Below are positions 1,252 through 3,843 of a DNA stretch of 64,000 nucleotides, one piece after another. Where the stretch lies: assembly GCA_043804925.1 (NCBI GenBank), contig JAZDIP010000104.1, forward strand, positions 63,538-127,537, written 5' to 3'. This DNA comes from a bacterium (GTDB lineage: Bacteria; Bacteroidota; Ignavibacteria; Kapaibacteriales; UBA2268). Numbering within the stretch: the first letter of the stretch is position 1; each line of letters begins with the position of its first letter. Both the position numbers and the translations under genes were made by a program. The notes under the pieces are model-generated. The model searched no databases. It was not told the origin of the DNA and was given only the letters and a program-made list of their open reading frames with translations.

Positions 1252-2310
1252 TTACCAGAAACCATATTCAAACATTACTAATTTCTTAGAAATATTATCT
1301 CCCATTTTAGTATCTTCTTCAATTATGTATAGTGGTAATTTTCCATTATACAATATTTGAATGTTTTCCCAATACCTTGCTTTATCATCGTTTTGTAATA
1401 TAATCTCAACATCTTCATAAAATTCACATGTTGTCCAATTTATTTGAACCAATCTATTATCTTGATCATATATGAATTTTCTAATTTCGTATCGTTGACC
1501 GAGATAATCATCTTCATTGTTAAACAATATTCTGTAAATCTTTCGCCCAGAAGAATCATAATGATTATATGCTATTCTTTCACCTTTCGGATGAAAAAGA
1601 AAATCAAAAATATTATTTTCGTGGAAATAAACAGAAACAATATCCATATTCTGATTTAATTCATAAGTATATGTGTAATCATCAGAAATTTCTCTGATTA
1701 AGTAAAATTTCGAATTATTTGAATAAAATTCATTTGTTTCAGAACTTGCATTCCAATAAAAGGAAGAATCATTTGAAGTTGAAAATTCAGAGTCATAGTA
1801 ATTAAAATTTCTTGTTTTGATAATTATTGGATCTCCAACTTTAGAATCTATACGTTTAATAATTATATAATGTTTAAAATTATCATCATATTTTTCCCAA
1901 ATTTCATCAATTGAGTCTAAAATTTTAATATCAATACGTTTTGTAATTCTATTATCTTTAAAATCATAATCAAATCTTTTCCAAAATTCATTATCGGATT
2001 CGCCACCAATTTTTGATAAACATCCCTCCGAATTGAAATATAATATTGATGATGGATATTTAATAGTATCTTCTATGGTTGGATATACTGAAACACGAGT
2101 ATATTTAATCCATTTAATTTTTAATTCATTCATTTCATTAAAAATTGAAAAAGGAACAAGTCCATAACTATCTAATAAATAGTAAATATCTGAATTATAA
2201 TAATAACATAATTTATAATTATTTTGATTTCCTTCTGACGCGATAATTTTGTCTGTATTGAGAATAAATACAAACAAAATTAATACAGATATTGTAAAAT
2301 ATAATTTCAT
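1252..2310 (-). CDS. Secreted hypothetical protein with YD-repeat-like beta-rich repeats. Sits 10 bp downstream of the RHS core/CT gene, where an immunity or partner gene would be expected.
   Basis: N-terminal signal peptide MKLYFTISVLILFVFILNTDKIIASEG. Repeats of the form Y.YD..G..I (YNHYDSSGRKIYRILF, FIYDQDNRLVQINW). Paralogous in style to 25141..25908 and 54265..55632. Confidence 0.6.
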   Translation of the reverse strand: MKLYFTISVLILFVFILNTDKIIASEGNQNNYKLCYYYNSDIYYLLDSYGLVPFSIFNEMNELKIKWIKYTRVSVYPTIEDTIKYPSSILYFNSEGCLSKIGGESDNEFWKRFDYDFKDNRITKRIDIKILDSIDEIWEKYDDNFKHYIIIKRIDSKVGDPIIIKTRNFNYYDSEFSTSNDSSFYWNASSETNEFYSNNSKFYLIREISDDYTYTYELNQNMDIVSVYFHENNIFDFLFHPKGERIAYNHYDSSGRKIYRILFNNEDDYLGQRYEIRKFIYDQDNRLVQINWTTCEFYEDVEIILQNDDKARYWENIQILYNGKLPLYIIEEDTKMGDNISKKLVMFEYGFW

Positions 2311-2319
2311 CGTTAATAA

Positions 2320-3843
2320 CTATTCGTTTGGTGGTATAATTGGCTGATAAATTGTTCCATTTTTATAATTTTGATTTTGTCTAACTCCTCTTATATAATC
2401 AATAGTCTTATCAGATACACCTGGACTTGAATTTGTAGGATTATTATTTTCAATTGCTGTTTCAAAAATATTATTATTAGTTTCGAAAGCATTATGATGT
2501 TCATCTGCCGAATTAATTTTTTTCGGATCAATTATATACCCTGAATATGGAATTTTGGATTGTATTGGTCCATAGCTATGGTAATGAAATTCATGAATAA
2601 CATTTGCAGCATTTCTACGAACATCACTGATTGAACTCAATTCATTAGCTGGATCATATATTTGGTCAAAGAAAAAATCACCTATAAAAGTTTGTGCTCC
2701 AGTGCCAGTACTAAAAATTACTACATCGTGTGTCTTTCCAGGTGCCAAAGCGACAGGTTGAGTATAACTTATTGTTGATGGCACTCTTTCGTATTGAGAA
2801 CTATTATACTTTGTAAGATCAAAAGTATTTGTATTTGGATCGTAAACTCGATAACCAGGTAATTTAACATTAGTCATGGTTCCTCCTGCAATTCCTGGAC
2901 CTAAATCTGCGGTAAAAACATATAAATGATTGTCGGGATTATTAATATAATAAGATATTGGATTTGCTGTTTGTATTTGAATATCAATATAATTTGCAAC
3001 ATCTAATGCCATATAAACATTTTGATTATTATTATACATAAATATATACTCTCCATTTTTATCTACAGCCCATATTGGTGAATTTCCAGCAAATTGATAT
3101 GGAGATAGCATAGGATAACTCTTAGTAAGAGGGTCAATACTCAAAAACCTCCCTACACGTGAATCATACATTCTTGCACCGAAGTCGAGCGAGTTTCCTT
3201 CTCCCTTTAATTTGTCGTCTTTTTCCATACCGTTGAATCCGAATCGGTAGCTTTCGCCGCTGTAAAACAATCCGGGTTGCAACATTCCGAAAGGATAATA
3301 ATTGCTGATTGCTACAAGGTCTGCATCGAATGGCTTCTTTGTTGCTCTTGGAGTGTCGTTGTCGTTGAATAGGTAATAATCCGAGAGCGGGTCAAATACA
3401 TTCGACAGCTTTAAGTCGGTGAACACTACCCTGACATTGCCCAAATGGTCTTTTAGCTCGTAATTTTTGAATCTCAATCTTCTTTCCTCAATATCGCTGT
3501 AAAGCTGGATTTGAGGATTCAAGTAATATACGGTATTCTGCGATTTACGTATGCAAAAACGTCCATGGCTTCCCGAACCGTAAATATGCCACTCACTCAA
3601 AGAAGGCATCCTTGCAGCACCTCCACCGTTAAGCCAATCCATCAGGTCGTCCAAATCATCGCCTTCGGGTAAAGTCCAAGTCATATATGGTCCCGTTTCG
3701 GAACTGGAATGAGTAGAAAAAATATTGTCTATTGAAGCAACAGCCGTATTAATATTATCATCAGGAACGGGTTTATCCGGTTGATTCCACTGGTACCATC
3801 CGTCATCCAAAATATTTTCCCTATACAATTCATAAATCGCCAT
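2320..3843 (-). CDS. RHS repeat-associated core domain protein with a ~270-aa C-terminal domain of unknown family (putative polymorphic-toxin CT). An orphan module lacking the long YD-repeat shell.
   Basis: One terminal YD repeat, then the Rhs core block [77 protein letters not shown], then a C-terminal region with no known motif. The gene upstream is a dCMP deaminase, not an rhs body. Confidence 0.7.
   Translation of the reverse strand: [507 protein letters not shown]

Follow-up and report, generated by a model that had tools for sequence, protein, structure and literature searches.

How does the 3' end of an rhs gene come to stand between housekeeping genes, and what could it do there? The question is raised by a locus in a stretch of 64,000 nucleotides (64 kb, hereafter the window) from an uncultured, low-GC, T9SS-bearing MAG. 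A sequence-only reading of this DNA had described an orphan Rhs core, joined to a C-terminal toxin domain (CT) that fits no family and followed by a secreted YD-like gene in the place of an immunity gene. Our analysis indicates that the locus is probably an orphan polymorphic-toxin module, that is, a 3' rhs end with its cognate immunity gene, stranded between housekeeping genes. Orphan rhs-CT/immunity modules are already well known as a kind of element; what is new here is the toxin and antidote families.

A truncated rhs gene

Both open reading frames on which the sequence-only reading was built exist, and the second starts 10 nt after the stop of the first, on the same strand. The first encodes the Rhs fragment, the parts of which are as follows.

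2320..3843, minus strand: orphan rhs fragment ORF (507 aa, NCBI MFH1052552.1), made of a YD-repeat tail, a unique linker, the conserved Rhs C-terminal region and a CT without known family
3844..3894, minus strand: in-frame remnant of the last YD repeat (17 residues, by translation) upstream of the annotated ATG, with a stop codon before it; kept in the relative L081
3049..3603, minus strand: conserved Rhs C-terminal (cocoon-sealing, autoprotease) region, aa 81-265
3052..3300, minus strand: TIGR03696 match, aa 182-264
aa 224-237 of the 507-aa product: motif of 14 residues in the Rhs core (letters withheld)
3049..3078, minus strand: core/CT boundary motif (10 residues), aa 256-265

The full Rhs core that had been claimed is recognised by TIGR03696 (E 2.4e-12, 47.2 bits against a cutoff of 32.5, aa 182-264), and a protein homology search found aa ~81-265 to be common to more than 1000 Rhs homologs. 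Relatives of the core belong mostly to Bacteroidota and Chlorobiota/Ignavibacteria/Kapabacteria. In Rhs proteins, the motif PxxxxDPxGL marks the boundary between core and CT (PMC8765631). The boundary motif found here retains the P, D and G of this canonical form, with K and E in place of the canonical P and L, and fits a family variant, P-[IV]-x-x-[IV]-D-x-[DN]-G or PxxxxDx[DN]G, that occurs in 111 of 118 relatives.

A full-length Rhs effector is defined by a YD-repeat beta-cocoon (a shell of ~100 kDa) upstream of the core and by an N-terminal delivery or trafficking domain. As had been noted, the shell is absent: the open frame 5' of the core model start amounts to ~98 aa with one partial YD repeat only, where full-length relatives have 1700-3300 aa. 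Searches of the 507-aa product with Pfam and NCBIfam gave the Rhs core as the only match and no PAAR/prePAAR, VgrG-binding plug, signal peptide or T9SS C-terminal domain, and residues 1-70 matched nothing in a scan of GTDB genomes. The single terminal YD repeat reported earlier is real and runs on in frame for 17 codons upstream of the ATG before it reaches a stop, the stop-to-stop frame being 2323..3894; the ATG itself is an internal Met of this repeat. The fragment is a displaced, 5'-truncated orphan rhs core-CT cassette, and its truncation is the scar of an ancestral longer rhs gene, not a designed N-terminus. Of the two options that had been offered, the displaced cassette stands, with an internal Met as its start codon, while the minimal toxin is unsupported because the truncation is a scar.

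Genomic setting

The gene upstream of the fragment encodes a dCMP deaminase (PF00383, 1.4e-21), as claimed, and together with a TonB-dependent receptor gene it flanks the cassette. A role of the deaminase as a part of the toxin system was considered and rejected, its synteny with OmpA being conserved across relatives that have no Rhs at all. Elsewhere in the 64-kb window there is no second Rhs core; the window holds no recombinase or integrase homolog, and Rfam and tRNA scans of it returned nothing.

A parent gene was sought at several scales. In the window the fragment does not lie downstream of a main rhs, and near-identical core DNA in a main rhs was not found. Among 5.8e9 proteins, the best non-self hit is 37-66% identical, and the search yielded no full-length rhs whose core is a close match; in a GTDB genome scan that did not include the source MAG, the best hit was 44% identical. 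Short frames before a core are common in related genomes: of 135 cores in 78 related genomic loci, 85 are preceded by an open frame of less than 100 aa, and many of the 85 follow a full-length rhs in an array.

The C-terminal domain

2323..3048, minus strand: candidate C-terminal toxin domain of no recognised family, aa 266-507, 242 aa
2905..2928, minus strand: H306-x6-D313, candidate catalytic residues (alignment)
2728..2730, minus strand: H372, candidate catalytic residue (alignment)
2578..2595, minus strand: H417-E418-F-x-x-H422, candidate catalytic residues (alignment)

The length of 242 aa compares with ~270 aa in the earlier estimate. That the domain belongs to no recognised family was borne out: there was no match in Pfam, NCBIfam, PADLOC or PDB (phmmer and hmmsearch for PDB) and no housekeeping domain. 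Its homologs likewise have no match in Pfam, NCBIfam or PADLOC, and a word-index search with the CT only found nothing. A full HMMER scan of 1.84 billion (1.84e9) protein-cluster representatives with a CT profile matched only the domain itself, a pair from Kapabacteria and one 60-aa partial sequence, which makes three lineages; both of the other lineages adjoin Phage_integrase genes. The CT is a new, very rare, uncharacterised candidate toxin family.

H306-x6-D313 is invariant in all four CT sequences, and H372 and H417/E418/H422 are conserved downstream. The H-x6-D pair with downstream His presumably resembles the ligand pattern of LAS-type/M15-like metallohydrolases. A zincin is defined by HExxH plus a family profile; the motif here is HExxxH (H-E-F-x-x-H), no Pfam or PDB profile matches, and the only metallopeptidase trace is an M1 aminopeptidase at E = 1. 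AlphaFold2 on the 4-sequence alignment gave an unusable model (pLDDT 32.0). The conserved residues, taken with the topology of the partner described below, suggest that the CT may be a hydrolase, possibly metal-dependent, that acts in the periplasm or envelope of the target cell.

The partner gene

1252..2310, minus strand: partner gene, putative exported immunity protein, 352 aa, GC 23.7%
2239..2310, minus strand: predicted signal peptide or membrane anchor of the partner, aa 1-24

No other long ORF in the window has so low a GC content. The NCBI annotation gives a shorter form of 293 aa, which starts at M60 (MFH1052551.1) and thus omits the signal peptide. The longer form, and with it the signal peptide claimed earlier, is favoured by a hydrophobic N-terminus with a mean Kyte-Doolittle value of 2.85 over 15 aa (p ~0.006 by chance, as estimated from random stop-free sequence of the same composition); codons 1-59 have the coding-like gradient GC1>GC2>GC3.

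An exported protein had been considered out of place where a small cytoplasmic immunity protein was expected. This objection is not supported, as exported partners recur in the family. Those of both Kapabacteria CT homologs (239-318 aa) have hydrophobic N-termini and are predicted to be exported; within the same Rhs family, Amidase_3 and Muramidase CTs are paired with proteins that carry lipoprotein signal peptides. Because the partners of these CTs are exported too, immunity against a periplasm-acting toxin is, from position, composition and topology, the most likely role of the 352-aa protein. In the periplasm-acting T6SS pairs Tae/Tai, Tge/Tgi and Tle/Tli, the immunity protein has a signal or lipoprotein peptide and the target lies in the envelope. 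The present locus shares the signal-bearing (candidate) immunity protein with Tae/Tai-type pairs and with the Amidase_3 and Muramidase CTs; it differs from both in that its partner has an N-terminus that is signal peptidase I-like or anchor-like, without a lipobox.

It has also to be asked whether the 352-aa gene encodes an unrelated secreted beta-hairpin (YD-like) surface protein, the true immunity gene having been lost or never there. At 352 aa the protein is longer than most immunity proteins. Among 5.8e9 proteins it found only itself (an ORFan), it has no match in Pfam, NCBIfam or PADLOC, and no homology to the partners of the CT homologs was detectable, hhalign with the Kapabacteria partners aligning the signal peptide only; the AlphaFold2 model from the single sequence was unusable (pLDDT 36.6). 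Two C-terminal hairpin units do resemble the 25141..25908 protein, a lipoprotein of the window with YD-like hairpins (BLASTP E 0.006), and this much of the claimed YD-like repeats stands. RHS_repeat (PF05593) and TIGR01643 (YD_repeat_2x), however, do not match the partner at E <=1, which tells against the surface-protein view itself, whereas the 54265..55632 product passes both. Similarity to the 54265 protein is confined to the signal peptide (E 0.023), so that the proposed paralogy with the two window proteins is weak, and the hairpin match lends weak support to a YD-like character of the partner. Further points against an unrelated protein are the 10-nt spacing on the same strand, an extremely low GC3 that is as in the CT and unlike the host, the deletion of the gene along with the CT in L081, and the length and predicted export of the CT homologs' partners. 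We consider an unrelated surface protein unlikely.

A compositional junction in the core

3150..3190, minus strand: compositional junction in the core, near aa 225/226 (sliding GC3)

Up to aa ~225, most windows of the sliding GC3 along the Rhs fragment give ~0.4-0.6; from aa ~226 through the CT the value is <=0.2 (0.124 overall). The partner has a GC3 of 0.12-0.16, and the host median is 0.305. The locus is accordingly a mosaic, in which the last ~40 core codons, the CT and the partner differ strongly in codon composition from the 5' part, and the junction falls in the most conserved core-coding DNA. Polymorphic toxin cassettes travel as toxin-immunity pairs (PMC3482391), and we infer that the crossover of a CT-immunity cassette swap took place at the GC3 junction.

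Loss in a relative and apparent constraint

3810..3818, minus strand: 9-nt microhomology AAAATATTT, left breakpoint of the L081 deletion, codons 9-11 of the fragment
1193..1201, minus strand: second AAAATATTT copy, right breakpoint of the L081 deletion, ~50 nt past the partner stop

The close relative L081, whose deaminase is 97% identical in amino acids, keeps the same YD remnant and 11 codons of the fragment and then jumps to window position ~1201. In L081, a 2.6-kb deletion that ran from one 9-nt microhomology to another has removed the core, the CT and the partner, AAAATATTT being present at both window breakpoints, and no replacement of the module is visible. In L082, which is more distantly related, the site bears no trace of Rhs. 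The truncation is thus older than the split from the sister lineage, in which a microhomology deletion later removed the module. The dS between the window and L081 is at least 0.71, and with K = 0.1 per site the simulated chance of either ORF staying open is at most 0.001. At these lengths, neutral drift could not have kept the two ORFs open since the split.

Such persistence could mean that the fragment is a working shell-less protein made from its own ATG, either toxin-antitoxin-like inside the producer or exported or loaded in trans. In its favour, the two ORFs have stayed intact through a dS of at least 0.7 since the truncation, an ATG is present, and most of the cores in related genomes belong to genes of core and CT without a shell. 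The terminator scan found none, including after the deaminase, so that read-through transcription is possible, and in Salmonella orphan Rhs toxins are expressed internally as type II TA modules (PMC7043789). The start codon, however, is a Met from within a YD repeat that ends 5' in a scar, and the product has no signal peptide, PAAR, T9SS C-terminal domain or Pfam/NCBIfam domain beyond the Rhs core. A sigma-70 promoter scan did no better than on shuffles, and a search for Bacteroidota-type -7 boxes gave chance-level matches only, with none within 257 bp upstream of the fragment. A TA-like role moreover requires a cytoplasmic antidote, and the partner is predicted to be exported; the sister lineage dropped the module without visible replacement. 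A working shell-less protein is on this evidence improbable. A more specific version, in which the fragment is under purifying selection as a working protein, the CT founds a new envelope-targeting toxin fold and the exported beta-hairpin (YD-like) protein gives immunity, appears to us slightly more doubtful; if it were true, a selected shell-less fragment would point to a function or delivery route that needs no YD cocoon.

The opposite possibility is a functionless relic, in which nothing is selected and the ORFs are open only through a recent overwrite by recombination. The clean deletion in the sister lineage, the failure to find a parent rhs, the lack of relatives of the partner and the GC3 mosaic, which shows that recombination happened, all fit a relic. 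A recent date of the overwrite would have to be assumed. Against a relic, two long AT-rich ORFs are free of stops, the toxin and partner keep a tight 10-nt spacing, and orphan immunity genes can be selected on their own (PMC12247911). We regard a relic as quite unlikely.

Relation to known systems

The locus has the parts that define an orphan rhs-CT/immunity module, namely a displaced 3' rhs fragment, a CT and an adjacent co-oriented partner. Enterobacteriaceae orphan rhs-CT/rhsI modules (Salmonella STM0292; Koskiniemi et al. 2014, PMC3967940) likewise consist of a partial conserved C-terminal region, a CT and a linked immunity gene; in both cases the rhs fragment has neither shell nor export signals, and recombination with a full-length rhs is the presumed means of activation. 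Unlike them, the present locus is a singleton between housekeeping genes with no close parent core found, its fragment has a (fortuitous) ATG, and its immunity candidate is predicted to be exported. The polymorphic toxin cassettes catalogued by Zhang, Aravind et al. 2012 (PMC3482391) resemble it as standalone toxin-immunity cassettes with a junction at the conserved pre-toxin region, where a single crossover delivers the toxin and the immunity gene together. The CT here differs in that it fits none of the catalogued Tox- or Imm Pfam families.

1055..1075, plus strand: 21-nt imperfect direct repeat, copy B, downstream of the partner gene
3884..3904, plus strand: 21-nt imperfect direct repeat (19/21), copy A, in heptamer-repeat sequence

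These two copies bracket the core-CT-partner cassette and had been candidates for an att site. Such a role is doubtful because copy A sits in heptamer tandem repeats whose copy number varies in L081, and the candidate was downgraded. The repeats also bear on another idea, in which a recombinase-associated defence array (rAID-like) left the pair behind or a tyrosine recombinase inserted it as an integron-like cassette. In favour of this idea one can further cite the Phage_integrase genes beside both other CT lineages and the low GC of the cassette genes. A rAID is defined by a tyrosine recombinase at the head of an array of at least two co-oriented, short, low-GC genes with conserved intergenic motifs (PMC12247911). 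Bacteroidales rAIDs (Ross et al. 2019; PMC12247911) share with this locus low-GC orphan immunity-type genes outside an active toxin locus, and the CT relatives are recombinase-adjacent; unlike a rAID, the window has no recombinase, no array and no evident conserved intergenic motif, only one pair, and a toxin fragment is retained. rAID arrays are, moreover, defined by short immunity genes, not by core-CT fragments (PMC12247911), and the bracketing repeat lies in the variable heptamers. We consider this origin very unlikely.

Proposed explanation and significance

The orphan-module reading would account for the locus as follows. The module would comprise the last YD repeat, the C-terminal core that seals the cocoon and acts as autoprotease, the toxin domain and the immunity gene, the CT-partner unit having probably come in by homologous recombination inside the core, the standard route of Rhs toxin swaps. 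The exported 352-aa partner would neutralise the CT in the periplasm or envelope and may protect its own cell from relatives armed with the toxin. In Rhs proteins it is the conserved C-terminal region that closes the cocoon, and it requires the barrel (PMC8765631). Because the YD cocoon and delivery domain are absent, the fragment would not be packaged or delivered by itself, and its deployment would first require recombination onto a full-length rhs. The literature describes orphan rhs-CT/rhsI modules and how recombination activates them (PMC3967940).

Three observations sit beside this explanation. A purely silent reservoir would not lead one to expect an intact, apparently constrained toxin ORF. 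No candidate for a recombination partner turned up among 5.8e9 proteins, the best non-self hit being 37-66% identical. The cognate-immunity role is putative, argued from position and topology, and the proteins paired with the CT homologs share no detectable homology with the 352-aa partner.

The earlier judgement that CT and partner are both uncharacterised agrees with our searches, and the locus leaves the understanding of Rhs systems unchanged. It does record an unusually clean module history, with a shared scar, a crossover in the core that is visible in GC3, and a loss through 9-nt microhomology in the sister lineage. The CT and its ORFan exported partner are a candidate for a new envelope-acting antibacterial activity together with its inhibitor, and orphan Rhs modules of this kind are raw material for re-arming contact-dependent weapons.

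Gene organization

The two ORFs that the sequence-only reading had picked out are both present and lie 10 nt apart, and the gene upstream of them on the same strand is, as that reading said, a dCMP deaminase. Pfam has no match in the 507-aa protein or in its partner. The features are as follows:

3..539 (-): N-terminus of a TonB-dependent receptor, the left neighbour, extending beyond the window edge
1252..2310 (-): partner, 352 aa; NCBI MFH1052551.1, annotated as 293 aa from M60
2320..3843 (-): rhs fragment, 507 aa; NCBI MFH1052552.1, "RHS repeat-associated core domain-containing protein"
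3928..4482 (strand shared with the ORF pair): dCMP deaminase (PF00383, E 1.4e-21)

The ~700 bp between the partner and the receptor (540-1251) are without a convincing gene; a 70-aa coiled-coil-like ORF (866..1078(-)) lies there, as does a 31-codon signal-peptide-like mini-ORF from 1170(-), whose first 7 codons are kept in the related locus L081. The YD remnant is separated from the deaminase stop by heptamer tandem repeats, (GGGTWTA)n and (AAAATGT/AGAATGT)n, at 3880-3927. Their copies are more numerous in L081 (8545-8625), and a 21-mer related to the tract recurs at window 1055-1075.

The Rhs core and its 5' truncation

The 507-aa gene is an rhs fragment, truncated at its 5' end. Translation of the frame 5' of the annotated ATG gives a canonical YD repeat, cut by a stop and comparable to YARDANGEVMAIY and YVRDAQGNIMATY in the Rhs-core homologs P0005 and P0030; because this repeat spans the ATG, the annotated start is an internal Met. 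The proposal of a displaced orphan rhs-CT with its own start is borne out by this Met and by the Rhs homology, which runs 17 codons further 5', up to the stop (stop-to-stop frame 2323..3894). The repeat is followed by a ~70-aa linker with no match elsewhere, and then by the conserved Rhs C-terminal region (aa 81-265), which is 37-66% identical to more than 1000 proteins. TIGR03696 (Rhs_assc_core), which had been named as the test of the core, scores 47.2 bits over aa 182-264 against a cutoff of 32.5. The core/CT boundary conforms to P-[IV]-x-x-[IV]-D-x-[DN]-G, a family variant, carried by 111 of 118 relatives, of the canonical motif PxxxxDPxGL (PMC8765631). A YD shell, a delivery domain, a second core and a recombinase are all absent from the 64 kb, in agreement with the claim that there is no upstream shell.

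The C-terminal domain

The CT (aa 266-507) was described as belonging to no recognised family, and neither the single sequence nor a profile matched anything in Pfam, NCBIfam, PADLOC or PDB. A profile HMMER scan of 1.84 billion cluster representatives returned, besides the CT itself, P0122 and P0002, which are two paralogous copies on one Candidatus Kapabacteria chromosome (OY762428.1, locus L001), and P0123, a 221-aa orphan that has only the first 60 CT residues in common. H306-x6-D313 is invariant in all four sequences, and H372 and H417-E418-F-x-x-H422 are kept in the window and Kapabacteria copies. This His/Asp/Glu set suggests a metal-dependent hydrolase, and the H-x6-D spacing may resemble that of LAS/M15-type enzymes. 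The CT has HExxxH where zincins have HExxH. AlphaFold2 models of the CT and the partner were of unusably low confidence (pLDDT 32.0 and 36.6, respectively). The other CT lineages adjoin tyrosine recombinase genes (L001:8567-16090; L080:2-1766): in L001 an integrase stands directly before two CT+partner units, and in L080 the CT ends after 60 aa, followed by a split integrase.

The partner gene

The partner had been called uncharacterised, and among 5.8 billion proteins it finds only itself. Its N-terminus (MKLYFTISVLILFVFILNTDKIIA followed by SEG) reaches a 15-aa mean hydropathy of 2.85 (maximum elsewhere 1.09), a value that only 0.6% of random stop-free sequences matched in composition attain, which supports the proposed signal peptide. 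The GC1>GC2>GC3 gradient seen over the rest of the gene extends to codons 1-59. Because of the hydropathy, the gradient and the spacing, the long exported form is favoured over the NCBI M60 start; of the two starts, the likelier seems to be the one 10 nt past the toxin stop, which gives 352 aa. At window positions 2133-2310, the M60 start (293 aa) leaves out a statistically convincing signal peptide.

Export of the partner had been presented as an anomaly, a view that the relatives contradict. Each of the two Kapabacteria CT homologs overlaps the gene after it, whose product (239 or 318 aa) has a conserved hydrophobic N-terminus, and downstream of short Rhs proteins of the same family with Amidase_3 or Muramidase CTs stand genes with lipoprotein signal peptides ending in ...LINTSC, ...FISSC and ...SITSC. 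Effectors that act in the periplasm are, as an established rule, matched by exported immunity proteins. Given this rule and the exported partners in the family, we infer that the partner is the immunity protein of a putative envelope-acting toxin; the composition of the partner varies along with that of the CT, and L081 has lost the two together. The rival view is that the partner is unrelated to immunity: its homology to the Kapabacteria partners is undetectable, so the immunity role is a putative one.

The YD-like label given to the partner is weak: the RHS_repeat and TIGR01643 models do not match it, and its likeness to the lipoprotein at 25141..25908 (E 0.006) lies in two C-terminal hairpins, YNHYDSSGRKIYRI and FIYDQDNRLVQI. 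Paralogy with the YD protein at 54265..55632 is not supported, since the likeness is confined to the signal peptide (E 0.023). In the former (25141-25908(-)), a 255-aa ORF of low GC (25.5%), a lipoprotein signal (MKKTILFLISLITLIGC) comes after an internal Met; the ORF also has several YD-like hairpins (FYDTSGNLI, FIYNSKNQLI) and matches no model. The latter (54265-55632(-)) is a genuine YD-repeat protein (TIGR01643 24.3 vs 15.8; PF05593) with a type IX secretion system (T9SS) C-terminal sorting domain (Por_Secre_tail, 4.4e-14), so the organism has such a system.

Loss of the module in a sister lineage

Querying metagenomes with the deaminase turned up L081 (Ga0172370_10000138, 100 kb), in which the deaminase is 97% identical in protein and the order OmpA-deaminase-TonB receptor is kept. 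Base-level comparison shows that L081 shares the truncated remnant, along with the first 11 codons, after which it runs directly into sequence ~50 nt past the partner stop. Since the 9-mer AAAATATTT lies at both window breakpoints (3810-3818 and 1193-1201), L081 has lost ~2.6 kb (core, CT and partner) by microhomology deletion. The shared remnant makes the 5' truncation older than the split of the two lineages. In the more distant L082 (deaminase 86% identical), the site holds an unrelated 157-aa gene and no Rhs trace.

Between the window and L081, synonymous divergence reaches 0.71 in the deaminase and 1.59 in the TonB receptor and is saturated in OmpA, which amounts to at least about 0.35 per site on each of the two lineages. 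In simulation, the chance of a 507-codon or 352-codon ORF staying stop-free was at most 0.001 at 0.1 substitutions per site. The module is thus not an old dead relic; either it is under purifying selection, or recombination has overwritten it since the two lineages separated, and a functionless but recently refreshed relic is the rival to a selected module.

Composition and probable cassette exchange

The rhs fragment is a composition mosaic. GC is 41.8% over aa 1-265, 29.9% in the CT and 23.7% in the partner, the lowest among window ORFs of at least 250 aa (whole window 33.3%). The GC3 shift is abrupt and falls inside the core rather than at the core/CT boundary: most sliding windows up to residue ~225 have ~0.4-0.6, and those from ~226 on have 0.2 or less (CT 0.124, partner 0.12-0.16, host median 0.305). 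The most conserved core-coding DNA is the expected site of homologous recombination swapping a cassette of core tail, CT and immunity gene (PMC3482391; PMC3967940), and we infer such a swap within the core here. Insertion by a recombinase would instead be in keeping with the integrase genes that adjoin the CT in both of its other lineages and with the 21-nt repeat that brackets the cassette, but this repeat lies in variable heptamer repeats, and the 64-kb window has no recombinase.

In several related genomes, an orphan core+CT in inverted orientation and a tyrosine recombinase come after a full-length rhs gene (L026:10245-14437, L039:10250-14241, L008:7469-11804). An inverted repeat joins the main gene core to the inverted orphan start (L026, 101 nt, 94%; L039, 182 nt, 78%; L008, 38 nt, 92% over the YYPFGM codons), which looks like an inversion switch (shufflon) that would swap the Rhs toxin tip.

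Occurrence of shell-less core+CT genes

Across 78 related loci from GTDB species representatives, each core was scored for upstream open-frame length, and the count covers the 135 cores that no contig end interrupts. The upstream frame was shorter than 100 aa in 85 of the 135 and longer than 1600 aa in 21. In the usual layout, a full-length rhs heads an array of short core+CT modules (L009, L010, L046, L050, L056, L076); there are also arrays with no main gene in view (L002, L024, L068, L074) and singleton modules (L017, L025, L049, L051-53, L064, L078). The N-termini of the short proteins start at many scattered positions within the Rhs C-terminal region, as expected of truncation products. 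The window module belongs to the class described as "orphan rhs-CT/rhsI" in Enterobacteriaceae (PMC3967940) and as "standalone cassette" for polymorphic toxins generally (PMC3482391).

The array at L074:667-12277, on the same Kapabacteria chromosome as L001, holds at least 7 tandem orphan core+CT modules; the 10 kb upstream of it contain no full-length rhs. In a subset of the short Rhs-core proteins (P0007, P0017, P0020, P0025, P0038 and P0039), thrombospondin type-3-like Asp-rich repeats (DxDxDGxxDxCDNCP) stand directly before "SEWxIYG" in place of a YD shell; this recurrent architecture may not be mere truncation.

Implications for the function of the module

Neither a terminator between the deaminase and the module nor a Bacteroidota-type -7 box upstream of it was found, so we propose that the module would be transcribed by read-through from the deaminase. 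The Rhs C-terminal region must seal a cocoon (PMC8765631). As the fragment has no cocoon to seal and no export signal, the toxin would be deliverable only after recombination onto a full-length rhs; the rival reading is a functional shell-less or TA-like protein, the latter documented for orphan Rhs (PMC7043789). As part of an orphan module, the immunity gene would protect against relatives deploying the CT toxin. We consider an orphan Rhs-CT/immunity module the probable overall kind of element, and place less confidence in the biochemistry. As a kind, this cassette is well supported and ordinary; its novelty lies in the CT family, which is very rare, and in the exported partner, an ORFan and putative immunity protein.
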